This document shows, one piece after another, positions 7,347-52,300 of a DNA stretch of 64,000 nucleotides. This stretch comes from Patiria miniata (taxonomy: Eukaryota). A program made the position numbers and the translations under genes. The notes beneath the pieces are model-generated. The model had not been told where the DNA came from and ran no database searches. It saw only the letters and a list, made by a program, of their open reading frames with translations. The stretch is from contig NW_024037060.1 of assembly GCF_015706575.1 (NCBI RefSeq), positions 945,983 through 1,009,982 of the forward strand, written 5' to 3'. Position 1 is the first letter of the stretch; the number at the start of each line of letters is the position of its first letter.

Positions 7347-7383
7347 TTAGACTGTTCCAAATAAATTGACTTCTGTGTGACAT

Positions 7384-10330: not shown

Positions 10331-13300
10331 CAATCAAATTTGTAGCTGTCACAGTTGTGATTGCTGGATTGAGAGGCGTAGTGACTTCTGAGGTGGTTTC
10401 CAACTTCTCCGTGGTGGCTGCCAATGTTGATGTTGCAAATGATGATGGGTTGCCAGGAGTCGTAGTCTGGACAGTAGAGGTTGCCATTGTAGATATCAAG
10501 CGTAGAGATGTTGCTTCAGAAATAGTACCAGCTTGTTGAGTGCTAGTTAAGTGAGACGGAATTAGACTAGTGGTCGCCTCTTCTGTTGACGTTACTTTGC
10601 TTGTTGCAGGACTGACTGAAGTGGCAAACTGCATAGTGCTTCCTACTGTAGATAACACGTCTGGTGTTGTTTGATCGATTGTAGTTGCCAATTGATCAGT
10701 GCTTGTTATGACAGTGGAGGCAAGTTCTTCCGATGAAGACTCCAGAGTTGTACCAGATTTCTCCGTTGTTTCGAAAACAGTTGTTACAACGGCTTGAGAT
10801 GTAGGATACAATGTAGTGTCTTCCTTCTCTGTTGAAGGTGGAATATTTGTCGTTTGTGCCTCTGTTGTCGGCTCAAGGGTTGATGGAATGATACTTGTAG
10901 CATCTTGATTCGTGGTAGCCACCTCTGTTGACGCTTCTTTGGATGTTGCCTGATTGGTCATACTACCAACCTCCGTAGTGGGCTCTATCGTGGATAACAA
11001 GTCTTGTGTTGTTTTATCGATTGTAGTTGCTGCTTGATCAGTGCTTGTTATGACAGTGGAGGTGAGATCCTCTGTTGAGGATTCCAGAGTTGTAACATCC
11101 GTTGTCTCGAAAACAGTTGTTACAACTGTTTGGGATGTAGGATACAATGTAGTGTCTTCCTTCTCTGTTGAAGGTGGAATATTTGTCGTTTGTGCCTCTG
11201 TTGTCGGCTCAAGGGTTGATGGAATGATACGTGTAGCATCCTGATTCGTGGTAGCCACCTCTGTTGACGCCTCTTTGGATGTTGCCTGATTGGTCGTAGT
11301 ACCAACCTCCGTAGTGCCTTCTATCGTGGATAACAAGTCTGGTGTTGTTTGATCGATACTAGTTGCTGCTTGTTCAGTGCTTGTTATGACAGTGGAGGCG
11401 AGATCCTCTGTTGAAGATTCCAGAGTTGTACCATATTGCTCCGTTGTCTTGAAAACAGTTGTTGCATCTGCTTGAGATATAGGATACAATGTAGTGTCTT
11501 CCTCCTCTGTTGTAGCTGCAATATTGGTCGTTTGTGCATCTGTTGTCGGTTCAAGGGTTGATGGAATGAGACTTGTAGCATCCTGATTCGTGGTAGCCAC
11601 CTCTGTCGACGCTTCTTTGGATGTTACCGGATTGGCCGTAGTACCAACCTCCGTAGTGCCTCCTGCTGTGGATAACAAGTCTTGTGTTGTTTGATCGATT
11701 CTAGTTGCTGCTTGTTCAGTGCTTGTTATGACAGTGGAGGCGAGATCCTCTGTTGAAGATTCCAGAGTTGTAACATCCGTTGTCTCGAAAACTGTTGTTG
11801 CATCTGCTTGAGATGTAGGATACAATGTAGTGCCTTCCTTCTCTGTTGTAAGTGGAATATTTGTCGTTTGTGCCTCTGTTGTCGGTTCAAGGGTTGATGG
11901 AATGATACTTGTAGCATCCTGATTCGTGGTAGCCACCTCTGTTGACGCTTCTTTGGATGTTGCCTGATTGGTCGTACTACCAACCTCCGTAGTGGGCTCT
12001 ATCGTGGATAATAAGTCTGGTGTTGTTTTATCGATTATAGTTGCTGCTTGTTCAGTGCTTGTTATGACAGTGGAGGCGAGATCCTCTGTTGAAGATTCCA
12101 GAGTTGTAACATCCGTTGTCTCGAAAACAGTTGTTACCGCTGCTTGAGATATAGGATACAATGTAGTGTCTTCCTCCTCTGTTGTAAGTGGAATATTTGT
12201 CGTTTGTGCCTCTGTTGTCGGTTCAAGGGTTGATGGAATGATACTTGTAGCATCCTGATTCGTGGTAGCCACCTCTGTTGACGCTTCTTTGGATGTTGCC
12301 TGATTGGTCGTACTACCAACCTCCGTAGTGGGCTCTATCGTGGATAACAAGTCTTGTGTTGTTTGATCGATAGCAGTTGCTTCTTGTTCAGTGTTTGTTA
12401 TGACAGTGGAGGCGAGATCCTCTGTTGAAGATTCCAGAGTCGTACCATATTGCTCCGTTGTCTCGAAAACAGTTGTTGCATCTGCTTGAGATATAGGATA
12501 CAATGTAGTGTCTTCCTCCTCTGTTGTAAGTGGAATATTTGTCGTTTGTGCCTCTGTTGTCGGTTCAAGGGTTGATGGAATGAGACTTGTAGCATCCTGA
12601 TTCGTGGTAGCCACCTCTGTCGACGCTTCTTTGGATGTTACCGGATTGGCCGAAGTACCAACCTCCGTAGTGCCTCCTGCTGTGGATAACAAGTCTTGTG
12701 TTGTTTGATCGATACTAGTTGCTGCTTGTTCAGTGCTTGTTATGACAGTGGAGGCGAGATCCTCTGTTGTAGATTCTAGAGTTGTAACATCCGTTGTCTC
12801 GAAAACAGTTGTTACAGCTGCTTGAGATGTAGGATACAATGTAGTGCCTTCCTTCTCTGTTGTAAGTGGAATATTTGTCGTTTGTGCCTCTGTTGTCGGT
12901 TCAAGGGTTGATGGAATGAGACTTGTATCATCCTGATTCGTGGTAGCCACCTCTGTTGACGTTTCTTTGGATGTTGCCTGATTGATCGTACTACCAACCT
13001 CCGTAGTGGGCTCTATCGTGGATAACATTTCAGGTGTTGTTTTATCGATTGTAGTTGCTGCTTGTTCAGTGCTTGTTATGACAGTGGAGGCGAGATCCTC
13101 TGTTGAAGATTCCAGAGTTGTACCAGATTTCTCCGTTGTCTCGAAAACTGTTGTTGCATCTGCTTGAGATGTAGGATACAATGTAGTGTCTTCCTCCTCT
13201 GTTGTAGCTGCAATATTGGTCGTTTGTGCCTCAGTTGTCGGTTCAAGGGTTGATGGTATGAGACTTGTAGCATCCTGATTCGTGGTAGCCACCTCTGTCG

Positions 13301-16300
13301 ACGCTTCTTTGGATGTTACCTGATTGGCCGTAGTACCAACCTCCGTAGTGCCTCGTGCTGTGGATAACAAGTTTAGTGTTGTTTGCTCGATACTAGTTGC
13401 TGCTTGTTCAGTGCTTGTTATGACAGTGGAGGTGAGATCCTCTGTTGAAGATTCCAGAGTTGTAACATCCGTTGTCTCGAAAATAGTTGTTACAACTGCT
13501 TGAGATGTAGGATACAATGTAGATCCTTCCTTCTCTGTTGTAAGTGGAATATTTGTCGTTTGTGCCTCTGTTGTCGGTTCAAGGGTTGATGGAATGATAC
13601 TTGTAGCATCCTGATTCGTGGTAGCCACCTCTGTTGACGCTTCTTTTGAAGTTACCGGATTGGCCGTAGTACCAACCTCCGTAGTGCCTCCTGCTGTGGA
13701 TAACAAGTCCTGTGTTGTTTGATCGATAGTAGTTGCTTCTTGTTCAGTGCTTGTTATGACAGTGGATACGAGATCCTCTGTTGAAGATTCCAGAGTTGTA
13801 CCAGATTTCTCCGTTGTCTCGAAAACTGTTGTTGCATCTGCTTGAGATGTAGGATACAATGTAGTGTCTTCCTCCTCTGTTGTAGCTGCAATATAGGTCG
13901 TTTGTGCCTCAGTTGTCGGTTCAAGGGTTGATGGAATGAGACTTGTAGCATCCTCATTCGTGGTGGCCACCTCTGTCGACGCTTCTTTGGATGTTACCGG
14001 ATTGGCCGTACTACCAACCTCCGTAGTGCCTTCTATCGTGGATAACAAGTCTGGTGTTGTTTGATCGATACTAGTAGCTGCTTGTTCAGTGCTTGTTATG
14101 ACAGTGGAGGCGAGATCCTCTGTTGATGATTCCAGAGTTGTAACATCCGTTGTCTGGAAAACAGTTGTAACAGCTGCTTGGGATGTAGGATACAATGTAG
14201 TGCCTTCCTTGTCTGTTGTAAGTGGAATATTTGTCGTTTGTGCCTCTGTTGTCGGTTCAAGGGTTGATGGAATGATACTTGTAGCATCCTGATTCGTGGT
14301 AGCCACCTCTGTTGATGCTTCTTTGGAAGTTACCGGATTGGCCGTAGTACCAACCTCCGTAGTGCCTCCTGCTGTGGATAACAAGTATTGTGTTGTTTGA
14401 TCGATTGTAGTTGCTTCTTGTTCAGTGCTTGTTATGACAGTGGAGGCGAGATCCTCTGTTGAAGATTCCAGAGTTGTACCAGATTTCTCCGTTGTCTCGA
14501 AAACTGTTGTTGCATCTGCTTGAGATGTAGGATACAATGTAGTGTCTTCCTCCTCTGTTGTAGCTGCAATATTGGTCGTTTGTGCCTCAGTTGTCGGTTC
14601 AAGGGTTGATGGTATGAGACTTGTAGCATCCTGATTCGTGGTAGCCACCTCTGTCGACGCTTCTTTGGATGTTACCTGATTGGCCGTACTACCAACCTCC
14701 GTAGTGCCTCGTGCTGTGGATAACGAGTCTAGTGTTGTTTGCTCGATACTAGTTGCTGCTTGTTCAGTGCTTGTTATGACAGTGGAGGCAAGATCCTCTG
14801 TTGAAGATTCCAGAGTTGTAACATCCGTTGTCTCGAAAACAGTTGTTACAGCTGCTTGAGATGTAGGATACAATGTAGATCCTTCCTTCTCTGTTGTAAG
14901 TGGAATATTTGTCGTTTGTGCCTCTGTTGTCGGTTCAAGGGTTGATGGAATGATACTTGTAGCATCCTGATTCGTGGTAGCCACCTCTGTTGACGCTTCT
15001 TTGGAAGTTACCGGATTGGCCGTAGTACCAACCTCCGTAGTGCCTCCTGCTGTGGATAACAAGTCCTGTGTTGTTTGATCGATAGTAGTTGCTTCTTGTT
15101 CAGTGCTTGTTATGACAGTGGAGGCGAGATCCTCTGTTGAAGATTCCAGAGTTGTACCAGATTTCTCCGTTGTCTCGAAAACTGTTGTTGCATCTGCTTG
15201 AGATGTAGGATACAATGTAGTGTCTTCCTCCTCTGTTGTAGCTGCAATATAGGTCGTTTGTGCCTCAGTTGTCGGTTCAAGGGTTGATGGAATGAGACTT
15301 GTAGCATCCTCATTCGTGGTGGCCACCTCTGTCGACGCTTCTTTGGATGTTACCGGATTGGCCGTAGTACCAACCTCCGTAGTGCCTTCTATCGTGGATA
15401 ACAAGTCTGGTGTTGTTTGATCGATACTAGTTGCTGCTTGTTCAGTGCTTGTTATGACAGTGGAGGCAAGATCCTCTGTTGAAGATTCCAGAGTTGTAAC
15501 ATCCGTTGTCTGGAAAACAGTTGTAACAGCTGCTTGAGATGTAGGATACAATGTAGTGCCTTCCTTGTCTGTTGTAAGTGGAATATTTGTCGTTTGTGCC
15601 TCTGTTGTCGGTTCAAGGGTTGATGGAATGATACTTGTAGCATCCTGATTCGTGGTAGCCACCTCTGTTGACGCTTCTTTGGATGTTGCCTCATTGGTCG
15701 TACTACCAACCTCCGTAGTTGGCTCTATCGTGGATAATAAGTCTGGTGTTGTTTTATCGATTGTAGTTGCTGCTTGTTCAGTGCTTGTTATGACAGTGGA
15801 GGCGAGATCCTCTGTTGAAGATTCCAGAGTTGTAACATCCGTTGTCTCGAAAACAGTTGTTACCGCTGCTTGAGATGTAGGATACAATGTAGTGCCTTCC
15901 TTTTCTGTTGTAAGTGGAATATTTGTCGTTTGTGCCTCTGTTGTCGGTTCAAGGGTTGATGGAATGATACTTGTAGCATCCTGATTCGTGGTAGCCACCT
16001 CTGTTGATGCTTCTTTGGAAGTTACCGGATTGGCCGTAGTACCAACCTCCGTAGTGCCTCCTGCTGTGGATAACAAGTATTGTGTTGTTTGATCGATTGT
16101 AGTTGCTTCTTGTTCAGTGCTTGTTATGACAGTGGAGGCGAGATCCTCTGTTGAAGATTCCAGAGTTGTACCAGATTTCTCCGTTGTCTCGAAAACTGTT
16201 GTTGCATCTGCTTGAGATGTAGGATACAATGTAGTGTCTTCCTCCTCTGTTGTAGCTGCAATATTGGTCGTTTGTGCCTCAGTTGAAGGTTCAAGGGTTG

Positions 16301-19300
16301 ATGGTATGAGACTTGTAGCATCCTGATTCGTGGTAGCCACCTCTGTCGACGCTTCTTTGGATGTTACCTGATTGGCCGTAGTACCAACCTCCGTAGTGCC
16401 TTGTGCTGTGGATAACAAGTCTAGTGTTGTTTGCTCGATACTAGTTGCTGCTTGTTCAGTGCTTGTTATGACAGTGGAGGCAAGATCCTCTGTTGAAGAT
16501 TCCAGAGTTGTAACATCCGTTGTCTCGAAAACAGTTGTTACCGCTGCTTGAGATGTAGGATACAATGTAGATCCTTCCTTCTCTGTTGTAAGTGGAATAT
16601 TTGTCGTTTGTGCCTCTGTTGTCGGTTCAAGGGTTGATGGAATGATACTTGTAGCATCCTGATTCGTGGTAGCCACCTCTGTTGACGCTTCTTTGGATGT
16701 TACCGGATTGGCCGTAGTACCAACCTCCGTAGTGCCTTCTATCGTGGATAACAAGTCTTGTGTTGTTTGATCGATTGTAGTTGCTTCTTGTTCAGTGCTT
16801 GTTATTACAGTGGAGGCGAGATCCTCTGTTGAAGATTCCAGAGTTGTACCAGATTTCTCCGTTGTCTCGAAAACTGTTGTTCCATCTGCTTGAGATGTAG
16901 GATACAATGTAGTGTCTTCCTCCTCTGTTGTAGCTGCAATATTGGTCGTTTGTGCCTCAGTTGTCGGTTCAACGGTTGATGGAATGATACTTGTAGCATC
17001 CTGATTCGTGGTAGCCTCCTCTGTCGACGCTTCTTTGGATGTTACCGGATTGGCCGTAGTACCAACCTCCGTAGTGCCTTCTATCGTGGATAACAAGTCT
17101 TGTGTTGTTTGATCGATAGTAGTTGCTTCTTGTTCAGTGCTTGTTATGACAGTGGAGGCGAGATCCTCTGTTGAAGATTCCAGAGTTGTACCAGATTTCT
17201 CCGTTGTCTCGAAAACTGTTGTTGCATCTTCTTGAGATGTAGGATACAATGTAGTGTCTTCCTCCTCTGTTGTAGCTGCAATATAGGTCGTTTGTGTCTC
17301 AGTTGTCGGTTCAAGGGTTGATGGAATGAGACTTGTAGCATCCTCATTCGTGGTGGCCACCTCTGTCGACGCTTCTTCGGATGTTACCGGATTGGCCGTA
17401 GTACCAACCTCCGTAGTGCCTTTTATCGTGGATAACAAGTCTGGTGTTGTTTGATCGATACTAGTTGCTGCTTGTTCAGTGCTTGTTATGACAGTGGAGG
17501 CAAGATCCTCTGTTGAAGATTCCAGAGTTGTAACATCCGTTGTCTCGAAAACAGTTGTTACAGCTGCTTGAGATGTAGGATACAATGTAGATCCTTCCTT
17601 CTCTGTTGTAAGTGGAACATTTGTCGTTTGTGCCTCTGTTGTCGGTTCAAGGGTTGATGGAATGATACTTGTAGCATCCTGATTCGTGGTAGCCACCTCT
17701 GTTGACGCTTCTTTGGAAGTTACCGGATTGGCCGTAGTACCAACCTCCGTAGTGCCTCCTGCTGTGGATAACAAGTCCTGTGTTGTTTGATCGATAGTAG
17801 TTGCTTCTTGTTCAGTGCTTGTTATGACAGTGGAGGCGAGATCCTCTGTTGAAGATTCCAGAGTTGTACCAGATTTCTCCGTTGTCTCGAAAACTGTTGT
17901 TGCATCTGCTTGAGATGTAGGATACAATGTAGTGTCTTCCTCCTCTGTTGTAGCTGCAATATAGGTCGTTTGTGCCTCAGTTGTCGGTTCAAGGGTTGAT
18001 GGAATGAGACTTGTAGCATCCTCATTCGTGGTGGCCACCTCTGTCGACGCTTCTTTGGATGTTACCGGATTGGCCGTAGTACCAACCTCCGTAGTGCCTT
18101 CTATCGTGGATAACAAGTCTGGTGTTGTTTGATCGATACTAGTTGCTGCTTGTTCAGTGCTTGTTATGACAGTGGAGGCGAGATCCTCTGTTGAAGATTC
18201 CAGAGTTGTAACATCCGTTGTCTGGAAAACAGTTGTAACAGCTGCTTGAGATGTAGGATACAATGTAGTGCCTTCCTCCTCTGTTGTAGCTGCAATATTG
18301 GTCGTTTGTGCCTCAGTTGTCGGTTCAAGGGTTGATGGTATGAGACTTGTAGCATCCTGATTCGTGGTAGCCACCTCTGTCGACGCTTCTTTGGATGTTA
18401 CCTGATTGGCCGTAGTACCAACCTCCGTAGTGCCTTGTGCTGTGGATAACAAGTCTAGTGTTGTTTGCTCGATACTAGTTGCTGCTTGTTCAGTGCTTGT
18501 TATGACAGTGGAGGCAAGATCCTCTGTTGAAGATTCCAGAGTTGTAACATCCGTTGTCTCGAAAACAGTTGTTACAGCTGCTTGAGATGTAGGATACAAT
18601 GTAGATCCTTCCTTCTCTGTTGTAAGTGGAATATTTGTCGTTTGTGCCTCTGTTGTCGGTTCAACGGTTGATGGAATGATACTTGTAGCATCCTGATTCG
18701 TGGTAGCCACCTCTGTTGACGCTTCTTTGGATGTTACCGGATTGGCCGTAGTACCAACCTCCGTAGTGCCTTCTATCGTGGATAACAAGTCTTGTGTTGT
18801 TTGATCGATTGTAGTTGCTTCTTGTTCAGTGCTTGTTATTACAGTGGAGGCGAGATCCTCTGTTGAAGATTCCAGAGTTGTACCAGATTTCTCCGTTGTC
18901 TCGAAAACTGTTGTTCCATCTGCTTGAGATGTAGGATACAATGTAGTGTCTTCCTCCTCTGTTGTAGCTGCAATATTGGTCGTTTGTGCCTCAGTTGTCG
19001 GTTCAACGGTTGATGGAATGATACTTGTAGCATCCTGATTCGTGGTAGCCTCCTCTGTCGACGCTTCTTTGGATGTTACCGGATTGGCCGTAGTACCAAC
19101 CTCCGTAGTGCCTTCTATCGTGGATAACAAGTCTTGTGTTGTTTGATCGATAGTAGTTGCTTCTTGTTCAGTGCTTGTTATGACAGTGGAGGCGAGATCC
19201 TCTGTTGAAGATTCCAGAGTTGTACCAGATTTCTCCGTTGTCTCGAAAACTGTTGTTGCATCTTCTTGAGATGTAGGATACAATGTAGTGTCTTCCTCCT

Positions 19301-22300
19301 CTGTTGTAGCTGCAATATAGGTCGTTTGTGTCTCAGTTGTCGGTTCAAGGGTTGATGGAATGAGACTTGTAGCATCCTCATTCGTGGTGGCCACCTCTGT
19401 CGACGCTTCTTTGGATGTTACCGGATTGGCCGTAGTACCAACCTCCGTAGTGCCTTCTATCGTGGATAACAAGTCTGGTGTTGTTTGATCGATACTAGTT
19501 GCTGCTTGTTCAGTGCTTGTTATGACAGTGGAGGCAAGATCCTCTGTTGAAGATTCCAGAGTTGTAACATCCGTTGTCTCGAAAACAGTTGTTACAGCTG
19601 CTTGAGATGTAGGATACAATGTAGATCCTTCCTTCTCTGTTGTAAGTGGAACATTTGTCGTTTGTGCCTCTGTTGTCGGTTCAAGGGTTGATGGAATGAT
19701 ACTTGTAGCATCCTGATTCGTGGTAGCCACCTCTGTTGACGCTTCTTTGGAAGTTACCGGATTGGCCGTAGTACCAACCTCCGTAGTGCCTGCTGCTGTG
19801 GATAACAAGTCCTGTGTTGTTTGATCGATAGTAGTTGCTTCTTGTTCAGTGCTTGTTATGACAGTGGAGGCGAGATCCTCTGTTGAAGATTCCAGAGTTG
19901 TACCAGATTTCTCCGTTGTCTCGAAAACTGTTGTTGCATCTGCTTGAGATGTAGGATACAATGTAGTGTCTTCCTCCTCTGTTGTAGCTGCAATATAGGT
20001 CGTTTGTGCCTCAGTTGTCGGTTCAAGGGTTGATGGAATGAGACTTGTAGCATCCTCATTCGTGGTGGCCAGCTCTGTCGACGCTTCTTTGGATGTTACC
20101 GGATTGGCCGTAGTACCAACCTCCGTAGTGCCTTCTATCGTGGATAACAAGTCTGGTGTTGTTTGATCGATACTAGTTGCTGCTTGTTCAGTGCTTGTTA
20201 TGACAGTGGAGGCGAGATCCTCTGTTGAAGATTCCAGAGTTGTAACATCCGTTGTCTGGAAAACAGTTGTAACAGCTGCTTGAGATGTAGGATACAATGT
20301 AGTGCCTTCCTTGTCTGTTGTAAGTGGAATATTTGTCGTTTGTGCCTCTGTTGTCGGTTCAAGGGTTGATGGAATGATACTTGTAGCATCCTGATTCGTG
20401 GTAGCCACCTCTGTTGACGCTTCTTTGGATGTTGCCTGATTGGTCGTACTACCAACCTCCGTAGTGGGCTCTATCGTGGATAATAAGTCTGGTGTTGTTT
20501 TATCGATTGTAGTTGCTGCTTGTTCAGTGCTTGTTATGACAGTGGAGGTGAGATCCTCTGTTGAAGATTCCAGAGTTGTAACATCCGTTGTCTCGAAAAC
20601 AGTTGTTACCGCTGCTTGAGATGTAGGATACAATGTAGTGCCTTCCTTTTCTGTTGTAAGTGGAATATTTGTCGTTTTTGCCTCTGTTGTCGGTTCAAGG
20701 GTTGATGGAATGATACTTGTAGCATCCTGATTCGTGGTAGCCACCTCTGTTGACGCTTCTTTGGAAGTTACCAGATTGGCCGTAGTACCAACCTCCGTAG
20801 TGCCTCCTGCTGTGGATAACATGTCTTGTGTTGTTTGATCGATAGTAGTTGCTTCTTGTTCAGTGCTTGTTATGACAGTGGAGGCGAGATCCTCTGTTGA
20901 AGATTCCAGAGTTGTACCAGATTTCTCCGTTCTCTCGAAAACTGTTGTTGCATCTGCTTGAGATGTAGGATACAATGTAGTGTCTTCCTCCTCTGTTGAA
21001 GCTGCAATATAGGTCGTTAGTGCCTCAGTTGTCGGTTCAAGGGTTGATGGAATGAGACTTGTAGCATCCTCATTCGTGGTGGCCACCTCTGTTGACGCTT
21101 CTTTGGATGTTGCCTGATTGGTCGTACTACCAACCTCCGTAGTGGGCTCTATCGTGGATAACAAGTCTTGTGTTGATTTATCGATTGTAGTTGCTGCTTG
21201 TTCAGTGCTTGTTATGACAGTGGAGGTGAGATCCTCTGTTGAGGATTCCAGAGTTGTAACATCCGTTGTCTCGAAAACAGTTGTTACAGCTGCTTGAGGT
21301 GTAGGATACAATGTAGTGCCTTCCTTCTCTGTTGTAAGTGGAATATTGGTCGTTTGTGCCTCAGTTGTCGGTTCAAGGGTTGATGGAATGATACTTGTAG
21401 CATCCTGATTCGTGGTACCCACCTCTGTCGACGCTTCTTTGGATGTTACCGGATTGGCCGTAGTACCAACCTCCGTAGTGCCTCCTGCTGTGGATAACAA
21501 GTCTTGTGTTGTTTGATCGATACTAGTTGCTGCTTGTTCAGTGCTTGTTATGACAGTGGAGGCGAGATCCTCTGTTGAAGATTCCAGAGTTGTAACATCC
21601 GTTGTCTCGAAAACAGTTGTTACAGCTGCTTGAGATGTAGGATACAATGTAGTGCCTTCCTTCTCTGTTGTAAGTGGAATATTTGTCGTTTGTGCCTCTG
21701 TTGTCGGTTCAAGGGTTGATGGAATGATACTTGTAGCATCCTGATTCGTGGTAGCCACCTCTGTTGACGCTTCTTTGGATGTTGCCTGATTGGTCGTACT
21801 ACCAACCTCCGTAGTGGGCTCTATTGTGGATAACAAGTCTTGTGTTGTTTGATCGGTAGTAGTTGCTGCTTGTTCAGTGCTTGTTATGACAGTGGAGGCG
21901 AGATCCTCTGATGAAGGTTCCAGAGTTGTAACATCCGTTGTCTCGAAAACAGTTGTTACAGCTGCTTGAGATGTAGGATACATTGTAGTGCCTTCCTTCT
22001 CTGTTGTAAATGGAATATTTGTCGTTTGTGCCTCTGTTGTCGGTTCAAGGGTTGATGGAATGTGACTTGTATCATCCTGATTCGTGGTAGCCACCTCTGT
22101 TGACGTTTCTTTGGATGTTGCCTGATTGGTCGTACTACCAACCTCCGTAGTGGGCTCTATCGTGGATAACAAGTCTTGTGTTGTTTTATCGATTGCAGTT
22201 GCTGCTTGTTCAGTGCTTGTTATGACAGTGGAGGTGAGATCCTCTGTTGAGGATTCCAGAGTTGTAACATCCGTTGTCTCGAAAACAGTTGTTACAGCTG

Positions 22301-40300: not shown

Positions 40301-43300
40301 GATGTAGGATACAATGTAGTGTCTTCCTCCTTTGTTGTAGCTGCAATATTGGTCGTTTGTGCCTCAGTTGTCGGTTCAAGGGTTGATGGAATGATACTTG
40401 TAGCATCCTGATTCGTGGTAGCCACCTCTGTTGACGCTTCTTTGGATGTTACCGGATTGGCCGTAGTACCAACCTCCGTAGTGCCTCCTGCTGTGGATAA
40501 CAAGTCTTGTGTTGTTTGATCGATAGTAGTTGCTGCTTGTTCAGTGCTTGTTATGACAGTGGAGGCGAGATCCTCTGTTGAAGATTCCAGAGTTGTAACA
40601 TCCGTTGTCTCGAAAACAGTTGTTACAGCTGCTTGAGATGTAGGATACAATGTAGTGCCTTCCTTCTCTGTTGTAAGTGGAATATTTGTCGTTTGTGCCT
40701 CTGTTGTCGGTTCAAGGGTTGATGGAATGATACTTGTAGCATCCTGATTCGTGGTAGCCACCTCTGTTGACGCTTCTTTGGATGTTGCCTGATTGGTCGT
40801 ACTACCAACCTCCGTAGTGGGCTCTATCGTGGATAACAAGTCTTGTGTTGTTTGATCGATTGTAGTTGCTGCTTGTTCAGTGCTTGTTATGACAGTGGAG
40901 GCGAGATCCTCTGTTGAAGGTTCCAGAGTTGTAACATCCGTTGTCTCGAAAACAGTTGTTACAGCTGCTTGAGATGTAGGATACAATGTAGTGCCTTCCT
41001 TCTCTGTTGTAAGTGGAATATTTGTCGTTTGTGCCTCTGTTGTCGGTTCAAGGGTTGATGGAATGATACTTGTAGCATCCTGATTCGTGGTAGCCACCTC
41101 TGTCGACGCTTCTTTGGATGTTACTGGATTGACCGTAGTACCAACCTCCGTAGTGCCTCCTACTGTGGATAACAAGTCTTGTGTTGTTTGATCGATTGTA
41201 GTTGCTCCTTGTTCAGTGCTTGTTATGACAGTGGAGGCGAGATCCTCTGTTGAAGGTTCCAGAGTTGTACCAGATTTCTCTGTTGTCTCGAAAACAGTTG
41301 TTACTGCTTTCTCCGTTGTCTCGAAAACAGTTGTTACAACTGATTGAGATGTAGGATGCAATGTAGTGTCTTCCTTCTCTGTTGAAGGTGGAATATTTGT
41401 CGTTTGTGCCTCTGTTGTCGGTTCAAGGGTTGATGGAATGATACTTGTAGCATCCTGATTCGTGGTAGCCACCTCTGTTGACGCTTCTTTGGATGTTGCC
41501 TGATTGGTCGTACTACCAACCTCCGTAGTGGGCTCTATCGTGGATAACAAGTCTTGTGTTGTTTGATCGATTGTAGTTGCTGCTTGTTCAGTGCTTGTTA
41601 TGACAGTGGAGGCGAGATCCTCTGTTGAAGATTCCAGAGTTGTAACATCCGTTGTCTCGAAAACAGTTGTTACAGCTGCTTGAGATGTAGGATACAATGT
41701 AGTGCCTTCCTTCTCTGTTGTAAGTGGAATATTTGTCGTTTGTGCCTCTGTTGTCGGTTCAAGGGTTGATGGAATGATACTTGTAGCATCCTGATTCGTG
41801 GTAGCCACCTCTGTTGACGCTTCTTTGGATGTTACTGGATTGGTCGTAGTACCAACCTCCGTAGTGCCTCTATCGTGGATAACAAGTCTTGTGTTGTTTG
41901 ATCGATTGTAGTTGCTGCTTGTTCAGTGCTTGTTATGACAGTGGAGGCGAGATCCTCTGTTGAAGATTCCAGAGTTGTACCAGATTTCTCTGTTGTCTCG
42001 AAAACAGTTGTAGGATACAATGTAGTGCCTTCCTTCTCTGTTGTAGGTGGAATATTTGTCGTTTGTGCCTCTGTTGTCGGTTCAAGGGTTGATGGAATGA
42101 TACTTGTAGCATCCTGATTCGTGGTAGATACCTCTGTTGACGCTTCTTTGGATGTTACCGGATTGGCCGTAGTACCAACCTCCGTAGTGCCTCTGCTGTG
42201 GATAACAAGTCTTGTGTTGTTTGATCGATAGTAGTTGCTTCTTGTTCAGTGCTTGTTATGACAGTGGAGGCGAGATCCTCTGTTGAAGATTCCAGAGTTG
42301 TACCAGATTTCCGTTGTCTCGAAAACAGTTGTTACAGCTGCTTGAGATGTAGGATACAATGTAGTGTCTTCCTCCTCTGTTGTAGCTGGAATATTGGTCG
42401 TTTGTGCCTCTGTTGTCGGTTCAAGGGTTGATGGAATGAGACTTGTAGCATCCTGATTCGTGGTAGCCACCTCTGTTGACGCTTCTTTGGATGTTACCGG
42501 ATTGGCCGTAGTACCAACCTCCGTAGTGCCTCCTGCTGTGGATAACAAGTCTTGTGTTGTTTGATCGATAGTAGTTGCTGCTTGTTCAGTGCTTGTTATG
42601 ACAGTGGAGGCGAGATCCTCTGTTGAAGATTCCAGAGTTGTAACATCCGTTGTCTCGAAAACAGTTGTTACAGCTGCTTGAGATGTAGGATACAATGTAG
42701 TGTCTTCCTTCTCTGTTGTAAGTGGAATATTTGTCGTTTGTGCCTCTGTTGTCGGTTCAAGGGTTGATGGAATGATACTTGTAGCATCCTGATTCGTGGT
42801 AGCCACCTCTGTTGACGCTTCTTTGGATGTTGCCTGATTGGTCGTACTACCAACCTCCGTAGTGGGCTCTATCGTGGATAACAAGTCTTGTGTTGTTTTA
42901 TCGATTGTAGTTGCTGCTTGTTCAGTGCTTGTTATGACAGTGGAGGCGAGATCCTCTGTTGAGGATTCCAGAGTTGTAACATCCGTTGTCTCGAAAACAG
43001 TTGTTACAGCTGCTTGAGATGTAGGATACAATGTAGTGCCTTCCTTCTCTGTTGTAAGTGGAATATTTGTCGTTTGTGCCTCTGTTGTCGGTTCAAGGGT
43101 TGATGGAATGATACTTGTAGCATCCTGATTCGTGGTAGCCACCTCTGTTGACGCTTCTTTGGATGTTGCCTGATTGGTCGTACTACCAACCTCCGTAGTG
43201 GGCTCTATCGTGGATAACAAGTCTTGTGTTGTTTGATCGATAGTAGTTGCTGCTTGTTCAGTGCTTGTTATGACAGTGGAGGCGAGATCCTCTGTTGAAG

Positions 43301-46300
43301 GTTCCAGAGTTGTAACATCCGTTGTCTCGAAAACAGTTGTTACAGCTGCTTGAGATGTAGGATACAATGTAGTGCCTTCCTTCTCTGTTGTAAGTGGAAT
43401 ATTTGTCGTTTGTGCCTCTGTTGTCGGTTCAAGGGTTGATGGAATGAGACTTGTAGCATCCTGATTCGTGGTAGCCACCTCTGTTGACGCTTCTTTGGAT
43501 GTTGCCTGATTGGTCGTACTACCAACCTCCGTAGTGGGCTCTATCGTGGATAACAAGTCTTGTGTTGTTTGATCGATTGTAGTTGCTGCTTGTTCAGTGC
43601 TTGTTATGACAGTGGAGGCGAGATCCTCTGTTGAGGATTCCAGAGTTGTAACATCCGTTGTCTCGATAACAGTTGTTACATCTGCTTGTGATGTAGGATA
43701 CAATGTAGTGCCTTCCTTCTCTGTTGTAGGTGGAATATTTGTCGTTTGTGCCTCTGTTGTCGGTTCAAGGGTTGATGGAATGATACTTGTAGCATCCTGA
43801 TTTGTGGTAGATACCTCTGTTGACGCTTCTTTGGAAGTTACCGGATTGACCGTAGTACCAACCTCCGTAGTGCCTCCTGCTGTGGATAACAAGTCTTGTG
43901 TTGTTTGATCGATAGTAGTTGCTTCTTGTTCAGTGCTTGTTATGACAGTGGAGGCGAGATCCTCTGTTGAAGATTCCAGAGTTGTACCAGATTTCTCCGT
44001 TGTCTCGAAAACAGTTGTTACAACTGATTGAGATGTAGGATACAATGTAGTGTCTTCCTCCTTTGTTGTAGCTGCAATATTGGTCGTTTGTGCCTCAGTT
44101 GTCGGTTCAAGGGTTGATGGAATGAGACTTGTAGCATCCTGATTCGTGGTAGCCACCTCTGTTGACGCTTCTTTGGATGTTACCGGATTGCCCGTAGTAC
44201 CAACCTCCGTAGTGCCTCCTGCTGTGGATAACAAGTCTTGTGTTGTTTGATCGATAGTAGTTGCTGCTTGTTCAGTGCTTGTTATGACAGTGGAGGCGAG
44301 ATCCTCTGTTGAAGATTCCAGAGTTGTAACATCCGTTGTCTCGAAAACAGTTGTTACAGCTGTTTGAGATGTAGGATACAATGTAGTGCCTTCCTTCTCT
44401 GTTGTAAGTGGAATATTTGTCGTTTGTGCCTCTGTTGTCGGTTCAAGGGTTGATGGAATGATACTTGTATCATCCTGATTCGTGGTAGCCACCTCTGTTG
44501 ACGCTTCTTTGGATGTTGCCTGATTGGTCGTACTACCAACCTCCGTAGTGGGCTCTATTGTGGATAACAAGTCTTGTGTTGTTTGATCGATTGTAGTTGC
44601 TGCTTGTTCAGTGCTTGTTATGACAGTGGAGGCGAGATCCTCTGTTGAGGATTCCAGAGTTGTAACATCCGTTGTCTCGAAAACAGTTGTTACATCTGCT
44701 TGTGATGTAGGATACAATGTAGTGCCTTCCTTCTCTGTTGTAGGTGGAATATTTGTCGTTTGTGCCTCTGTTGTCGGTTCAAGGGTTGATGGAATGATAC
44801 TTGTAGCATCCTGATTCGTGGTAGATACCTCTGTTGACGCTTCTTTGGAAGTTACCGGATTGACCGTAGTACCAACCTCCGTAGTGCCTCCTGCTGTGGA
44901 TAACAAGTCTTGTGTTGTTTGATCGATAGTAGTTGCTTCTTGTTCAGTGCTTGTTATGACAGTGGAGGCGAGATCCTCTGTTGAAGATTCCAGAGTTGTA
45001 CCAGATTTCTCCGTTGTCTCGAAAACAGTTGTTACAACTGATTGAGATGTAGGATACAATGTAGTGTCTTCCTCCTTTGTTGTAGCTGCAATATTGGTCG
45101 TTTGTGCCTCAGTTGTCGGTTCAAGGGTTGATGGAATGAGACTTGTAGCATCCTGATTCGTGGTAGCCACCTCTGTTGACGCTTCTTTGGATGTTACCGG
45201 ATTGCCGTAGTACCAACCTCCGTAGTGCCTCCTGCTGTGGATAACAAGTCTTGTGTTGTTTGATCGATAGTAGTTGCTGCTTGTTCAGTGCTTGTTATGA
45301 CAGTGGAGGCGAGATCCTCTGTTGAAGATTCCAGAGTTGTAACATCCGTTGTCTCGAAAACAGTTGTTACAGCTGCTTGAGATGTAGGATACAATGTAGT
45401 GTCTTCCTTCTCTGTTGAAGTGGAATATTTGTCGTTTGTGCCTCTGTTGTCGGTTCAAGGGTTGATGGAATGATACTTGTAGCATCCTGATTCGTGGTAG
45501 CCACCTCTGTTGACGCTTCTTTGGATGTTGCCTGATTGGTCGTACTACCAACCTCCGTAGTGGGCTCTATCGTGGATAACAAGTCTTGTGTTGTTTGATC
45601 GATTGTAGTTGCTGCTTGTTCAGTGCTTGTTATGACAGTGGAGGCGAGATCCTCTGTTGAGAATTCCAGAGTTGTAACATCCGTTGTCTCGAAAACAGTT
45701 GTTACAGCTGCTTGTGATGTAGGATACAATGTAGTGCCTTCCTTCTCTGTTGTAAGTGGAATATTTGTCGTTTGTGCCTCTGTTGTCGGTTCAAGGGTTG
45801 ATGGAATGATACTTGTAGCATCCTGATTCGTGGTAGATACCTCTGTTGACGCTTCTTTGGAAGTTGCCTGATTGGTCGTACTACCAACCTCCGTAGTGGG
45901 CTCTATCGTGGATAACAAGTCTTGTGTTGTTTGATCGATAGTAGTTGCTGCTTGTTCAGTGCTTGTTATGACAGTGGAGGCGAGATCCTCTGTTGAAGTT
46001 CCAGAGTTGTAACATCCGTTGTCTCGAAAACAGTTGTTACAGCTGCTTGAGATGTAGGATACAATGTAGTGCCTTCCTTCTCTGTTGTAAGTGGAATATT
46101 TGTCGTTTGTGCCTCTGTTGTCGGTTCAAGGGTTGATGGAATGATACTTGTAGCATCCTGATTCGTGGTAGCCACCTCTGTTGACGCTTCTTTGGAAGTT
46201 GCCTGATTGGTCGTACTACCAACCTCCGTAGTGGGCTCTATCGTGGATAACAAGTCTTGTGTTGTTTGATCGATAGTAGTTGCTTCTTGTTCAGTGCTTG

Positions 46301-49300
46301 TTATGACAGTGGAGGCGAGATCCTCTGTTGAAGATTCCAGAGTTGTACCATTTCTCGTTGTCTCGAAAACAGTTGTTACAGCTGCTTGAGATGTAGGATA
46401 CAATGTAGTGTCTTCCTCCTCTGTTGTAGCTGCAATATTGGTCGTTTGTGCCTCAGTTGTCGGTTCAAGGGTTGATGGAATGAGACTTGTAGCATCCTGA
46501 TTCGTGGTAGCCACCTCTGTTGACGCTTCTTTGGATGTTACCGGATTGCCCGTAGTACCAACCTCCGTAGTGCCTCCTGCTGTGGATAACAAGTCTTGTG
46601 TTGTTTGATCGATACTAGTTGCTGCTTGTTCAGTGCTTGTTATGACAGTGGAGGCGAGATCCTCTGTTGAAGATTCCAGAGTTGTAACATCCGTTGTCTC
46701 GAAAACAGTTGTTACAGCTGCTTGAGATGTAGGATACAATGTAGTGCCTTCCTTCTCTGTTGTAAGTGGAATATTTGTCGTTTGTGCCTCTGTTGTCGGC
46801 TCAAGGGTTGATGGAATGATACTTGTAGCATCCTGATTCGTGGTAGCCACCTCTGTTGACGCTTCTTTGGATGTTGCCTGATTGGTCGTACTACCAACCT
46901 CCGTAGTGGGCTCTATCGTGGATAACAAGTCTTGTGTTGTTTGATCGATTGTAGTTGCTGCTTGTTCAGTGCTTGTTATGACAGTGGAGGCGAGATCCTC
47001 TGTTGAGGATTCCAGAGTTGTAACATCCGTTGTCTCGAAAACAGTTGTTACAGCTGCTTGTGATGTAGGATACAATGTAGTGCCTTCCTTCTCTGTTGTA
47101 GGTGGAATATTTGTCGTTTGTGCCTCTGTTGTCGGTTCAAGGGTTGATGGAATGATACTTGTAGCATCCTGATTTGTGGTAGATACCTCTGTTGACGCTT
47201 CTTTGGAAGTTACCGGATTGACCGTAGTACCAACCTCCGTAGTGCCTCCTGCTGTGGATAACAAGTCTTGTGTTGTTTGATCGATAGTAGTTGCTTCTTG
47301 TTCAGTGCTTGTTATGACAGTGGAGGCGAGATCCTCTGTTGAAGATTCCAGAGTTGTACCAGATTTCTCCGTTGTCTCGAAAACAGTTGTTACAACTGCT
47401 TGAGATGTAGGATACAATGTAGTGTCTTCCTCCTTTTTTGTAGCTGCAATATTGGTCGTTTGTGCCTCAGTTGTCGGTTCAAGGGTTGATGGAATGAGAC
47501 TTGTAGCATCCTGATTCGTGGTAGCCACCTCTGTTGACGCTTCTTTGGATGTTACCGGATTGCCCGTAGTACCAACCTCCGTAGTGCCTCCTGCTGTGGA
47601 TAACAAGTCTTGTGTTGTTTGATCGATAGTAGTTGCTGCTTGTTCAGTGCTTGTTATGACAGTGGAGGCGAGATCCTCTGTTGAAGATTCCAGAGTTGTA
47701 ACATCCGTTGTCTCGAAAACAGTTGTTACAGCTGTTTGAGATGTAGGATACAATGTAGTGCCTTCCTTCTCTGTTGTAAGTGGAATATTTGTCGTTTGTG
47801 CCTCTGTTGTCGGCTCAAGGGTTGATGGAATGATACTTGTAGCATCCTGATTCGTGGTAGCCACCTCTGTTGACGCTTCTTTGGATGTTGCCTGATTGGT
47901 CGTACTACCAACCTCCGTAGTGGGCTCTATCGTGGATAACAAGTCTTGTGTTGTTTGATCGATTGTAGTTGCTGCTTGTTCAGTGCTTGTTATGACAGTG
48001 GAGGCGAGATCCTCTGTTGAAGATTCCAGAGTTGTAACATCCGTTGTCTCGAAAACAGTTGTTACATCTGCTTGAGATGTAGGATACAATGTAGTGCCTT
48101 CCTTCTCTGTTGTAGGTGGAATATTTGTCGTTTGTGCCTCTGTTGTCGGTTCAAGGGTTGATGGAATGATACTTGTAGCATCCTGATTTGTGGTAGATAC
48201 CTCTGTTGACGCTTCTTTGGAAGTTACCGGATTGACCGTAGTACCAACCTCCGTAGTGCCTCCTGCTGTGGATAACAAGTCTTGTGTTGTTTGATCGATA
48301 GTAGTTGCTTCTTGTTCAGTGCTTGTTATGACAGTGGAGGCGAGATCCTCTGTTGAAGATTCCAGAGTTGTACCAGATTTCTCCGTTGTCTCGAAAACAG
48401 TTGTTACAACTGCTTGAGATGTAGGATACAATGTAGTGTCTTCCTCCTTTGTTGTAGCTGCAATATTTGTCGTTTGTGCCTCAGTTGTCGGTTCAAGGGT
48501 TGATGGAATGAGACTTGTAGCATCCTGATTCGTGGTAGCCACCTCTGTTGACGCTTCTTTGGATGTTACCGGATTGCCCGTAGTACCAACCTCCGTAGTG
48601 CCTCCTGCTGTGGATAACAAGTCTTGTGTTGTTTGATCGATAGTAGTTGCTGCTTGTTCAGTGCTTGTTATGACAGTGGAGGCGAGATCCTCTGTTGAAG
48701 ATTCCAGAGTTGTAACATCCGTTGTCTCGAAAACAGTTGTTACAACTGTTTGAGATGTAGGATACAATGTAGTGTCTTCCTTCTCTGTTGAAGGTGGAAT
48801 ATTTGTCGTTTGTGCCTCTGTTGTCGGTTCAAGGGTTGATGGAATGATACTTGTAGCATCCTGATTCGTGGTAGCCACCTCTGTTGACGCTTCTTTGGAT
48901 GTTGCCTGATTGGTCGTACTACCAACCTCCGTAGTGGGCTCTATCGTGGATAACAAGTCTTGTGTTGTTTGATCGATTGTAGTTGCTGCTTGTTCAGTGC
49001 TTGTTATGACAGTGGAGGCGAGATCCTCTGTTGAGGATTCCAGAGTTGTAACATCCGTTGTCTCGAAAACAGTTGTTACATCTGCTTGTGATGTAGGATA
49101 CAATGTAGTGCCTTCCTTCTCTGTTGTAGGTGGAATATTTGTCGTTTGTGCCTCTGTTGTCGGTTCAAGGGTTGATGGAATGATACTTGTAGCATCCTGA
49201 TTCGTGGTAGCCACCTCTGTTGACGCTTCTTTGGAAGTTACCGGATTGACCGTAGTACCAACCTCCGTAGTGCCTCCTGCTGTGGATAACAAGTCTTGTG

Positions 49301-52300
49301 TTGTTTGATCGATAGTAGTTGCTTCTTGTTCAGTGCTTGTTATGACAGTGGAGGCGAGATCCTCTGTTGAAGATTCCAGAGTTGTACCATCTCTGTTGTC
49401 TCGAAAACAGTTGTTACAGCTGCTTGAGATGTAGGATACAATGTAGTGCCTTCCTCCTCTGTTGTAGTGCAATATTGGTCGTTTGTGCCTCTGTTGTCGG
49501 TTCAAGGGTTGATGGAATGATACTTGTAGCATCCTGATTCGTGGTAGCCACCTCTGTTGACGCTTCTTTGGATGTTACCGGATTGCCGTACTACCAACCT
49601 CCGTAGTGCCTCCTGCTGTGGATAACAAGTCTTGTGTTGTTTGATCGATAGTAGTTGCTGCTTGTTCAGTGCTTGTTATGACAGTGGAGGCGAGATCCTC
49701 TGTTGAAGATTCCAGAGTTGTAACATCCGTTGTCTCGAAAACAGTTGTTACAGCTGCTTGAGATGTAGGATACAATGTAGTGCCTTCCTTCTCTGTTGTA
49801 AGTGGAATATTTGTCGTTTGTGCCTCTGTTGTCGGTTCAAGGGTTGATGGAATGATACTTGTAGCATCCTGATTCGTGGTAGCCACCTCTGTTGACGCTT
49901 CTTTGGATGTTGCCTGATTGGTCGTACTACCAACCTCCGTAGTGGGCTCTATCGTGGATAACAAGTCTTGTGTTGTTTGATCGATAGTAGTTGCTGCTTG
50001 TTCAGTGCTTGTTATGACAGTGGAGGCGAGATCCTCTGTTGAGGATTCCAGAGTTGTAACATCCGTTGTCTCGAAAACAGTTGTTACAGCTGCTTGAGAT
50101 GTAGGATACAATGTAGTGCCTTCCTTCTCTGTTGTAAGTGGAATATTTGTCGTTTGTGCCTCTGTTGTCGGTTCAAGGGTTGATGAAATGATACTTGTAG
50201 CATCCTGATTCGTGGTAGATACCTCTGTTGACGCTCCTTTGGAAGTTGCCTGATTGGTCGTACTACCAACCTCCGTAGTGGGCTCTATCGTGGATAACAA
50301 GTCTTGTGTTGTTTGATCGATAGTAGTTGCTGCTTGTTCAGTGCTTGTTATGACAGTGGAGGCGAGATCCTCTGTTGAAGGTTCCAGAGTTGTAACATCC
50401 GTTGTCTCGAAAACAGTTGTTACAGCTGCTTGAGATGTAGGATACAATGTAGTGCCTTCCTTTTCTGTTGTAAGTGGAATATTTGTCGTTTGTGTCCTCT
50501 GTTGTCGGTTCAAGGGTTGATGAATGATACTTGTAGCATCCTGATTCGTGGTAGATACCTCTGTTGACGCTCCTTTGGATGTTGCCTGATTGGTCGTACT
50601 ACCAACCTCCGTAGTGGGCTCTATCGTGGATAACAAGTCTTGTGTTGTTTGATCGATTGTAGTTGCTTCTTGTTCAGTGCTTGTTATGACAGTGGAGGCG
50701 AGATCCTCTGTTGAAGATTCCAGAGTTGTACCAGATTTCTCCGTTGTCTCGAAAACAGTTGTCACAACTGATTGAGATGTAGGATGCAATGTTGTGTCTT
50801 CCTCCTTTGTTGTAGCTGCAATATTGGTCGTTTGTGCCTCAGTTGTCGGTTCAAGGGTTGATGGAATGAGACTTGTAGCATCCTGATTCGTGGTAGCCCC
50901 CTCTGTTGACGCTTCTTTGGATGTTACCGGATTGCCCGTAGTACCAACCTCGTAGTGCCTCCTGCTGTGGATAACAAGTCTTGTGTTGTTTGATCGATAC
51001 TAGTTGCTGCTTGTTCAGTGCTTGTTATGACAGTGGAGGCGAGATCCTCTGTTGAAGATTCCAGAGTTGTAACATCCGTTGTCTCGAAAACAGTTGTTAC
51101 AGCTGTTTGAGATGTAGGATACAATGTAGTGCCTTCCTTCTCTGTTGTAAGTGGAATATTTGTCGTTTGTGCCTCTGTTGTCGGCTCAAGGGTTGATGGA
51201 ATGATACTTGTAGCATCCTGATTCGTGGTAGCCACCTCTGTTGACGCTTCTTTGGATGTTGCCTGATTGGTCGTACTACCAACCTCCGTAGTGGGCTCTA
51301 TCGTGGATAACAAGTCTTGTGTTGTTTGATCGATTGTAGTTGCTGCTTGTTCAGTGCTTGTTATGACAGTGGAGGCGAGATCCTCTGTTGAGGATTCCAG
51401 AGTTGTAACATCCGTTGTCTCGAAAACAGTTGTTACATCTGCTTGTGATGTAGGATACAATGTGGTGCCTTCCTTCTCTGTTGTAGGTGGAATATTTGTC
51501 GTTTGTGCCTCTGTTGTCGGTTCAAGGGTTGATGGAATGATACTTGTAGCATCCTGATTTGTGGTAGATACCTCTGTTGACCCTTCTTTGGAAGTTACCG
51601 GATTGACCGTAGTACCAACCTCCGTAGTGCCTCCTGCTGTGGATAACAAGTCTTGTGTTGTTTGATCGATAGTAGTTGCTTCTTGTTCAGTGCTTGTTAT
51701 GACAGTGGAGGCGAATCCTCTGTTGAAGATTCCAGAGTTGTACCAGATTTCTCCGTTGTCTCGAAAACAGTTGTCACAACTGATTGAGATGTAGGATGCA
51801 ATGTAGTGTCTTCCTCCTTTGTTGTAGCTGCAATATTGGTCGTTTGTGCCTCAGTGTTCGGTTCAAGGGTTGATGGAATGAGACTTGTAGCATCCTGATT
51901 CGTGGTAGCCACCTCTGTTGACGCTTCTTTGGAAGTTACCGGATTGGCCGTAGTACCAACCTCCGTAGTGCCTCCTGCTGTGGATAACAAGTCTTGTGTT
52001 GTTTGATCGATAGTAGTTGCTTCTTGTCCAGTGCTTGTTATGACAGTGGAGGCGAGATCCTCTGTTGAAGATTCCAGAGTTGTACCAGATTTCTCCGTTG
52101 TCTCAAAAACTGTTGTTGCATCTGCTTGAGATGTAGGATACAATGTAGTGTCTTCCTCCTCTGTTGTAGCTTCAATATTGGTCGTTTGTGCCTCAGTTGT
52201 CGGTTCAAGAGTTGACGGAATGAGACTCGTAGCATCCTGATTTGTGGTAGCCACTTCTGTTGACGCTTCTTTGGATGTTGCCGGATTGACCGTTGTACCA

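Follow-up and report, generated by a model that had tools for sequence, protein, structure and literature searches.

We analyzed a 64,000-nucleotide stretch of the genome of an echinoderm, the bat star Patiria miniata (NCBI RefSeq assembly GCF_015706575.1, contig NW_024037060.1, positions 945,983 to 1,009,982 of the forward strand). This whole stretch is called the window, and all coordinates are positions within it. Its minus strand carries the locus LOC119729475, for which RefSeq gives an 'uncharacterized protein' of 530 amino acids (aa), together with a long array of tandem repeat units. Judged by its coding content and its neighbors, the array appears to form the very large central exon of a gene for a membrane-tethered mucin, whose repeats would be O-glycosylated. 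Within the array, the duplications of blocks of several units are real and statistically solid. The coordinates of the features are collected in Table 1.

The exons downstream of the array are short, have AG/GT borders and join into one in-frame product. The spliced C-terminal product is 100% identical to the 530-aa protein of LOC119729475 [Patiria miniata], and this RefSeq protein confirms every splice junction in our model. A GT splice donor at 10331/10330 ends the open reading frame (ORF) downstream of the array, and the resulting 3′ junction of the repeat exon (ATNLI|DECALF) is supported by RefSeq protein P0001. Pfam placed EGF_CA at residues 9-48 of the spliced fragment, SEA at residues 54-161 and EGF at residues 177-208. 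The SEA match (PF01390) scored 37.0 bits (E = 4.1e-9), above the gathering cut-off of 26.4, and covered profile positions 2-99 of 106. It was seen only after two exons had been spliced, and Pfam gave no match on the lone SEA exon or on the repeat unit. A sequence search of the PDB returned EGF-type matches only, with no SEA match at E ≤ 1. One small exon of the transmembrane (TM) and tail part was not located within 5775..7787.

At the position of the putative autoproteolysis site, the SEA exon at 8394-8616 (minus strand) encodes FAPG|SIKAEY, which keeps the G-S pair. Echinoderm relatives carry FRPGSIVTE or FRPGSIIVE at this position, and the mucin motif for SEA autoproteolysis is G|SVVV. The order of the protein would be a putative signal peptide, the repeat array, a calcium-binding EGF domain, SEA, a second EGF domain, the TM helix and the tail. 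A giant bacterial adhesin of prokaryotic origin was also considered; it is excluded by the GT-AG introns, the in-frame splicing and the 100% identity to a P. miniata protein.

Between 10 and 58 kb, both GC skew and AT skew are strong and evenly biased throughout, and the long ORFs of the window are found on the minus strand only. The array is therefore read on the minus strand. In the register of the repeat, the 136 units contain no stop in 15,058 codons, compared with 425 and 415 stops in the other two frames. An uninterrupted ORF of 4454 aa spans 10179-23543. The encoded array consists of 29.4% T, 10.9% E, 9.8% S, 8.9% A and 4.6% P. A non-repeat Thr/Ser-rich stretch of ~240 aa lies between the array and the putative start, an ATG at 57674. 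The peptide that begins there, MSIWTVLAVASLLYPMTESSFA, resembles a signal peptide when judged by eye, and both the start and the signal peptide are probable. The array would be expressed as one exon. Another in-frame ATG is found 39 codons upstream of the MSIW methionine (57674-57791, minus strand; MLGKCLFSLSPIKETNLLQKCSRRLPNVGRLSVTPRKPT-MSIW...), and the sequence ttttccacag|GG at ~57868 may be a splice acceptor.

To segment the array, we cut it at the conserved anchor TACGGAGGTTGGTA with mismatches tolerated and added one unit with a deletion in its anchor. This gave 136 units at 10642..56934 on the minus strand. Tandem Repeats Finder (TRF) reported 129.7 copies with a period of 336 at 10570-54533, and adjoining TRF rows with periods of 342-414 bp stretch the array to ~57.1 kb. 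The 'a' unit (336 bp) contains ACGGATGTTACAAC and encodes DVTT. The 'B' unit (342 bp) contains ACGGAGAAATCTGGTACAAC and encodes EKSGTT. Nine 'X' units of 370-414 bp have one or two additional 36-bp sub-repeats that encode VVTTVFETTEKA; on the plus strand the sub-repeat reads TTTCTCCGTTGTCTCGAAAACAGTTGTTACAACTGC, and it is present two to three times within each of these nine units. The X units cluster at the 5′ end of the array (52988-56256), and those of the interior are scattered (41153-41527, 38423-38792, 28271-28648 and 23500-23876). Each unit encodes a Thr/Ser/Glu-rich mucin repeat of 112 or 114 aa, and the in-register consensus translation is free of stops: TEVGTTANPVTSKEASTEVATTNQDATSIIPSTLEPTTEAQTTNIPLTTEKEGTTLYPTSQAAVTTVFETTDVTTLESSTEDLASTVITSTEQAATTIDQTTQDLLSTIEG.

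In the operational definition of Lang, Hansson and Samuelsson, a mucin combines a PTS domain with a SEA or VWD domain (PMC1552070). For a 'strong' candidate, these authors also demand that the SEA domain group with characterized mammalian mucin SEA domains. Here the PTS domain is represented by ~15,000 codons in 136 tandem units of one exon-like stretch, with lowish proline. The same protein has a Pfam SEA domain (PF01390), which is flanked by EGF domains and lies between the PTS domain and the membrane. As predicted from its sequence, LOC119729475 is a mucin under the operational definition, with a MUC13-like domain set.

Table 1. Features of the LOC119729475 locus and duplicated blocks of its repeat array. 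Paired positions are the two copies found by self-BLAST.
Feature	Positions	Strand	Remarks
Putative single giant exon	10331..57674	-	~47.3 kb, ~15,800 codons; start codon to GT donor
Unit 0	56599-56934	-	End of segmented array
Unit 135	10642-10977	-	End of segmented array
Calcium-binding EGF exon	9698..9820	-	Splice model; Pfam EGF_CA, E = 1.6e-10; P0001 100%
SEA domain, two exons	8917-8775 + 8616-8394	-	Pfam SEA
Second EGF exon	7952..8092	-	Pfam EGF_3 + EGF; P0001 100%
TM helix, RRRKKRRK stop-transfer, cytoplasmic tail, stop codon	5775..7787	-	Helix IIIIASSVTAAVLLIIALVLVVV; exons 7787-7390, 7040-6939, 5849-5775
Part of array with probable consensus or assembly errors	23500..54750	-	Frameshifted units (all 21) and hybrid a/B states
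4-unit (1356 bp) tandem block duplication	13034..15683	-	~2 copies
6-unit (2034 bp) tandem block duplication	16208..20466	-	~2.1 copies; cleanest example
14-unit (4772 bp) repeat	21598..28989	-	Units 82-86 vs 96-100; X units 83 and 97 mark the copies
7-unit (~2357 bp) block duplication	29326..33703	-	Units 68-73 vs 75-80, 99.4%
5-unit (1686 bp) block	34166..38571	-	~2.6 copies; units 55-59 vs 60-64, 99.4%
aaB-trimer sector (1014 bp)	43210..49389	-	At most 3 copies; repeats of 7, 10 and 13 units on top
Self-BLAST, 1356 bp, 4 units	13034-14327 vs 14390-15683		1294 bp, 98.6%, 0 gaps
Self-BLAST, 2034 bp, 6 units	16208-18432 vs 18242-20466		2225 bp, 99.0%, 0 gaps
Self-BLAST, 1014 bp, 3 units	46356-48375 vs 47370-49389		2020 bp, 99.0%
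Self-BLAST, 1014 bp, 3 units	43210-44886 vs 44224-45898		1677 bp, 98.7%
Self-BLAST, 1686 bp, 5 units	34166-36888 vs 35852-38571		2724 bp, 98.6%
Self-BLAST, ~2357 bp, 7 units	30126-31354 vs 32482-33709		1229 bp, 99.3%
Self-BLAST, 3372 bp, 10 units	43210-45898 vs 46582-49272		2691 bp, 98.9%
Self-BLAST, 4386 bp, 13 units	43210-45003 vs 47596-49389		99.1%
Self-BLAST, 4772 bp, 14 units	21598-24218 vs 26370-28989		2623 bp, 98.55%
Self-BLAST, 5056 bp, 15 units	28996-31127 vs 34052-36183		2133 bp, 98.7%

All 136 units were aligned to give a 136 × 136 identity matrix, and a self-BLAST of the array was run independently of the unit segmentation. Unit segmentation and self-BLAST replaced the global ungapped lag identity, which was dropped; it understates the structure because it is blurred by the 336/342/indel heterogeneity. 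Units at lag 1 have a mean identity of 0.936, and the maximum, 0.952, is reached at lag 3. The best lag in sliding sectors shifts along the array from 10 to 3, 5, 3, 6 and 2. Copies of a block are 98.5-99.6% identical, compared with ~92-95% for neighboring units. Runs of at least three consecutive units at a fixed lag number 7 at ≥99% identity and 26 at ≥98%. Free shuffling of the units predicts 0.12 and 1.5 such runs, respectively, shuffling within the a/B class 0.09 and 1.0, and shuffling within class and array quarter 0.13 and 3.2. The observed count was reached in none of 500 shuffles under either the class-preserving or the class-plus-sector null.

Ten lags were found in all (3, 4, 5, 6, 7, 8, 10, 13, 14 and 15 units), and they overlap and nest. 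Each block has only two to three copies, with a matching segment of 0.55-2.0 times the lag. At 1014, 1356, 1686 and 2034 bp the segment spans roughly the full lag or more (0.95-2.0 times the lag), so these are directly adjacent tandem duplicates. At 3372, 4772 and 5056 bp it falls short of the lag, and the copies are therefore non-adjacent or were interrupted later. The interior X units at positions 45/53 and 83/97 are independent marks of the lag-8 and lag-14 repeats.

The 6-unit block gives the clearest picture. Units 108-112 and 114-118 have a mean identity of 99.65%, and the top raw lag in 16.2-20.5 kb is 2034 bp (0.985). The two copies differ by 22 substitutions without any indel, and both are open. 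Both copies of the 1356-bp pair also stay open, with 18 differences that are substitutions only. In the three block pairs compared, there are 22, 18 and 20 differences, all of them substitutions, and 0 indels. Each lag of the clean sector is a multiple of 3 bp, which keeps the ORF intact.

The initial annotation had proposed local periods of 1356, 2034 and 1014 bp from the spacing of marker ORFs. Its marker coordinates are correct and show where alternative-frame ORFs of the minus strand end. The marker MLQVSYHQPL recurs with starts at 13273 and 14629 and with further starts at 16321 and 18355, and MRMLQVSFHQ starts at 13957, 15313 and six other sites. These ORFs do not count as separate features; they arise as by-products in a frame of the repeat with ~3 stops per unit and serve only as markers of variants. 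In the self-BLAST, each of the three periods has a strong secondary diagonal. Because the self-comparison shows more than a 336/342-bp diagonal, with strong ones at 1014, 1356 and 2034 bp, the earlier observation is confirmed. The list of periods was incomplete, however, as those of 1686, ~2357, 3372, 4386, 4772 and 5056 bp equal or exceed the named ones in strength. Periods do differ by sector, as had been claimed, but one period per sector is too simple, since the lags overlap and nest. The third marker had been read as a sign of 3-unit blocks. This needs correction: the marker has 13 sites with unit spacings of 19, 7, 3, 10, 9, 2, 3, 7, 6, 3, 4 and 6, and the 2357-bp spacing is 7 units, which is no multiple of 3. 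What stands from the block identities and the open copies is that multi-unit duplications occurred in register, with the frame preserved, in particular sectors and within a coding sequence.

Below these blocks lies a simpler pattern, which we read from the a/B string after resolving the hybrid units. In the center of the array, B is mostly found at every third unit, giving an aaB trimer of 1014 bp. The check proposed with the initial annotation, an autocorrelation of unit subtypes, shows this as a lag-3 signal with z = 3.8 in units 15-107. In the 3′ sector (units 108-131), B alternates with a, and the pattern is an aB dimer of 678 bp. Units at the two ends of the array match its consensus at 0.93-0.94, those in the center at 0.97-0.98. 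The nearest relative of a unit lies at a median lag of 12.5 units, compared with 39.9 when the units are shuffled. The array is a patchwork of nested segmental duplications, in which larger blocks sit atop the aaB/aB pattern.

That mucin repeat arrays change by unequal exchange is textbook knowledge. In P. miniata, units of the array would pair misaligned but in register, and unequal exchange between sister chromatids or homologues, or replication slippage, would follow. Such an exchange would duplicate or delete several units per event and would homogenize the interior more than the ends. Recent duplications of 3-15 units (2-3 copies, 98.5-99.6% identity) would then have been laid over the aaB/aB pattern, sector by sector. 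The array has the signature of unequal exchange because blocks are more alike than neighbors and the edges are more diverged than the center. We put the probability at about 75% that the array of this membrane mucin evolves by ordinary exchange or slippage as in other mucin exons, and that the frameshifts in its middle are assembly errors.

The initial annotation had named unequal crossing-over. The signature expected from it is present, but crossing-over, slippage and conversion leave the same picture in one haplotype. Gene conversion or concerted homogenization, in which multi-unit stretches overwrite existing units and the unit number stays constant, would suit the lags at which the segment is shorter than the lag and the copies are non-adjacent (2.6 kb at 4772 bp, 2.1 kb at 5056 bp and 2.7 kb at 3372 bp). 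Conversion may account for these non-adjacent copies. As an explanation of the array we consider it unlikely, since the adjacent tandem copies at 1014, 1356, 1686 and 2034 bp are the footprint of duplication. The two processes are not exclusive, as they have a misaligned-pairing intermediate in common.

Frameshifts are confined to one part of the array. All 21 units with a length that is not a multiple of 3 are among units 6-97 (23.5-54.7 kb), and units 98-135, which are the 38 closest to the 3′ flank, have none (Fisher p = 9e-4). Set against sister units of 98-100% identity, nearly all lesions are deletions of 1 bp. They are restricted to the most homogeneous 31 kb, and no nonsense substitution is present anywhere in the array. 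At the 6-bp indel that separates a (GGATGTTACAAC) from B (GGAGAAATCTGGTACAAC), units 21, 30, 42, 51, 68, 71, 75 and 92 show differing partial hybrids. These hybrid units are 337-340 bp long, and examples are found at 46231-46569, 33367-33703, 32357-32694 and 31011-31348. Eight different independent biological mutations at one 6-bp site are unlikely. The hybrid states suggest that reads of different unit types, or of two out-of-register haplotypes, were mixed in polishing, and they could be a sign that the array is structurally heterozygous. Given these hybrid states and the lack of any nonsense substitution, we take the indels to be most likely errors of long-read consensus or assembly, and not gene decay.

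For the same frameshifts and hybrid states, unit order and base detail in 23.5-54.7 kb are less certain. This touches the 1014-bp sector, whose period stands but whose unit order is less certain because it sits inside the frameshifted part. The part at 10.2-23.5 kb is reliable, with an uninterrupted ORF, and holds the 1356- and 2034-bp blocks.

The main rival to exchange or slippage is that some or all of the duplications were made in assembly, by mis-joined reads or by the stitching of two divergent haplotypes. The central 31 kb, with its 21 frameshifted units and eight hybrid units, has evident consensus problems; P. miniata is described as highly polymorphic (10.1101/2023.02.05.527185), and a block identity of 98.5-99% is within the expected allelic range. 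However, the blocks of 1356 and 2034 bp, which are the best examples, belong to the clean 13.4-kb part, with an open ORF and without indels between the copies. The array also shows many nested blocks with ten lags instead of one large false duplication, the rare X units mark the lag-8 and lag-14 repeats independently, and multi-unit duplication is the expected biology of mucin arrays. We therefore regard an assembly origin of the duplications as quite unlikely.

Several observations weigh against our reading of the array as a coding mucin exon that evolves by exchange or slippage. The RefSeq model starts at an internal methionine at ~10634 and omits the array. The repeat unit matched no protein in a collection of 5.8 billion sequences, which leaves its translation without independent support. 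Substitutions at the three codon positions number 554, 755 and 558, with no excess at the third position. The 1356-bp period is a single duplication that is barely above the underlying 678-bp dimer (raw lag identity in 12.7-15.7 kb of 0.968, the top value, and 0.950, respectively). The exchange mechanism is deduced from one haplotype of one assembly; that sequence is also the only source for the order of units in 23.5-54.7 kb and for the predicted transcription of the array as one exon.

Some of these observations would fit a decaying pseudogene or a non-coding satellite, with the short RefSeq model as the true gene: the ORF is split into 13 pieces within the window, RefSeq has just 530 aa from an internal methionine, and there is no third-position bias. 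We consider this very improbable. The 15,058 codons are free of nonsense changes despite ~1,870 substitutions from the consensus, while each of the other frames has ~420 stops. As described above, the 38 units at the 3′ flank have no frameshift, and most frameshifts are 1-bp deletions when compared with sister units that are nearly identical. In addition, a start that resembles a signal peptide is found upstream of the array in the same frame, whereas the RefSeq protein has no signal peptide though it would be a type I membrane protein. Its start methionine sits in the last degenerate repeat. The 47-kb repeat exon is thus unannotated: the RefSeq model begins at ~10634, and no protein of the collection matches the unit.

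Differences between codons of the units comprise 515 synonymous and 1172 non-synonymous changes. Since there is no third-position excess, constraint at the level of sequence is weak. Constraint probably acts mostly on the reading frame and on composition (O-glycosylation sites) over the exact sequence, which would suit an O-glycosylated scaffold.

To place the gene, we compared it with known proteins. An exhaustive HMMER search with the 530-aa protein gave 527 relatives. Those with the full module are long Ser/Thr-rich proteins of echinoderms and hemichordates with the same EGF-SEA-EGF-TM end. Their automatic NCBI names are 'mucin-5AC-like' in A. planci, 'mucin-3A-like' in L. variegatus, 'mucin-17-like' in L. 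pictus and 'mucin-3A' in S. purpuratus, and the hemichordate relatives are uncharacterized proteins. The module is homologous in XP_022088479 (A. planci), XP_041479383 (L. variegatus) and XP_011671279 (S. purpuratus), with E = 5e-35 to 2e-13 and ~30% identity over ~350 aa. Ser/Thr-rich regions precede the module in these ambulacrarian proteins too, but in the protein-collection search they are unlike the repeat unit of P. miniata. The proteins have 1,000-2,400 aa compared with the ~16,000 aa predicted in P. miniata; their gene models may be truncated.

The layout is shared with MUC13 and with MUC3A/MUC12/MUC17, where PTS repeats in one huge exon are followed by EGF, SEA, EGF, TM and tail (domain content of MUC13 as in PMC1552070). 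The P. miniata SEA domain has a G-S pair at the position of the putative cleavage site. It differs from the vertebrate mucins in its unit, which has 112/114 aa, is acidic with 29% Thr and 4.6% Pro, and is unrelated in sequence. The P. miniata SEA domain gave no sequence-level match to the solved mucin SEA structures, and the likeness is one of layout. Lang et al. regard MUC3/12/17 as a late vertebrate development (PMC1552070); convergence may therefore account for the shared layout, as may inheritance of an older EGF-SEA-EGF-TM module.

As in P. miniata, the terminal repeats of the human mucin exons (MUC1, MUC2, MUC4, MUC5AC/5B, MUC6 and MUC12) are more degenerate. In the human arrays this is ascribed to reduced homogenization of the end repeats, and the mechanism is unequal exchange, as we propose for P. 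miniata (PMC13345508). Unit loss and duplication are the main allelic differences of mucin exons, which are unstable and prone to assembly errors (PMC6269512), and the same source cites Desseyn 1997 for the central exon of MUC5B as a 'super-repeat'. P. miniata differs in its long unit (336/342 bp) and its very long array (~46 kb). Polymorphism has been observed in the human exons, whereas in P. miniata it is suggested by one haplotype.

The initial annotation had compared the array to the higher-order repeats (HORs) of alpha-satellite DNA. What is shared is that blocks are more alike than adjacent monomers (98.5-99.6% compared with a lag-1 mean of 93.6%). The comparison is a loose one, because alpha-satellite HORs consist of many homogeneous copies of one multimer and the array of P. 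miniata has only 2-3 copies per block, with ten overlapping lags. The monomers of classical HORs are also far more diverged, whereas those of P. miniata differ by 4-9%. HORs inside protein-coding genes are known from NBPF, where Olduvai triplets form 3mer HORs (PMC9584774).

The flanks of the gene hold little else. An Rfam scan of the whole window gave no match, and a literature search by locus name found no paper that mentions LOC119729475. At 547-1038 (minus strand) there is a 163-aa ORF that contains HQGDHGSNPGRRSHVSRVV and has no Pfam match. We take it to resemble a translated SINE-like interspersed repeat of a kind common in marine invertebrate genomes. A short ORF at 62791-63012 (minus strand) has a run of nine prolines, LTPPPPPPPPPSNPQ, and is probably low-complexity sequence; the 5′ flank has no other recognizable gene.

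The finding adds one more case to the known behavior of mucin arrays, and multi-unit repeats in coding sequence have precedents. A predicted membrane mucin of ~16,000 aa in a model echinoderm is shown as 530 aa in RefSeq. Because RefSeq holds only these 530 aa, the mucin is invisible to proteomics, to expression studies and to comparisons on the origin of SEA mucins in deuterostomes. The locus also illustrates how probable long-read consensus errors gather where a coding array is most homogeneous and how they disrupt gene models. In the well-resolved 3′ third, duplications of 4 and 6 units that kept the frame are cleanly recorded, and they could serve the study of repeat-array mutation in a species described as highly polymorphic. 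We suggest, tentatively and as a possibility we hold less probable than its opposite, that this unannotated array is among the largest single-exon mucin domains outside the vertebrates (~16,000 aa) and that it is live and structurally heterozygous. The hybrid units would then reflect two haplotypes out of register by whole units, alleles in the population would differ by length steps of 2-15 units, and host-microbe selection on the glycocalyx might possibly act on them.

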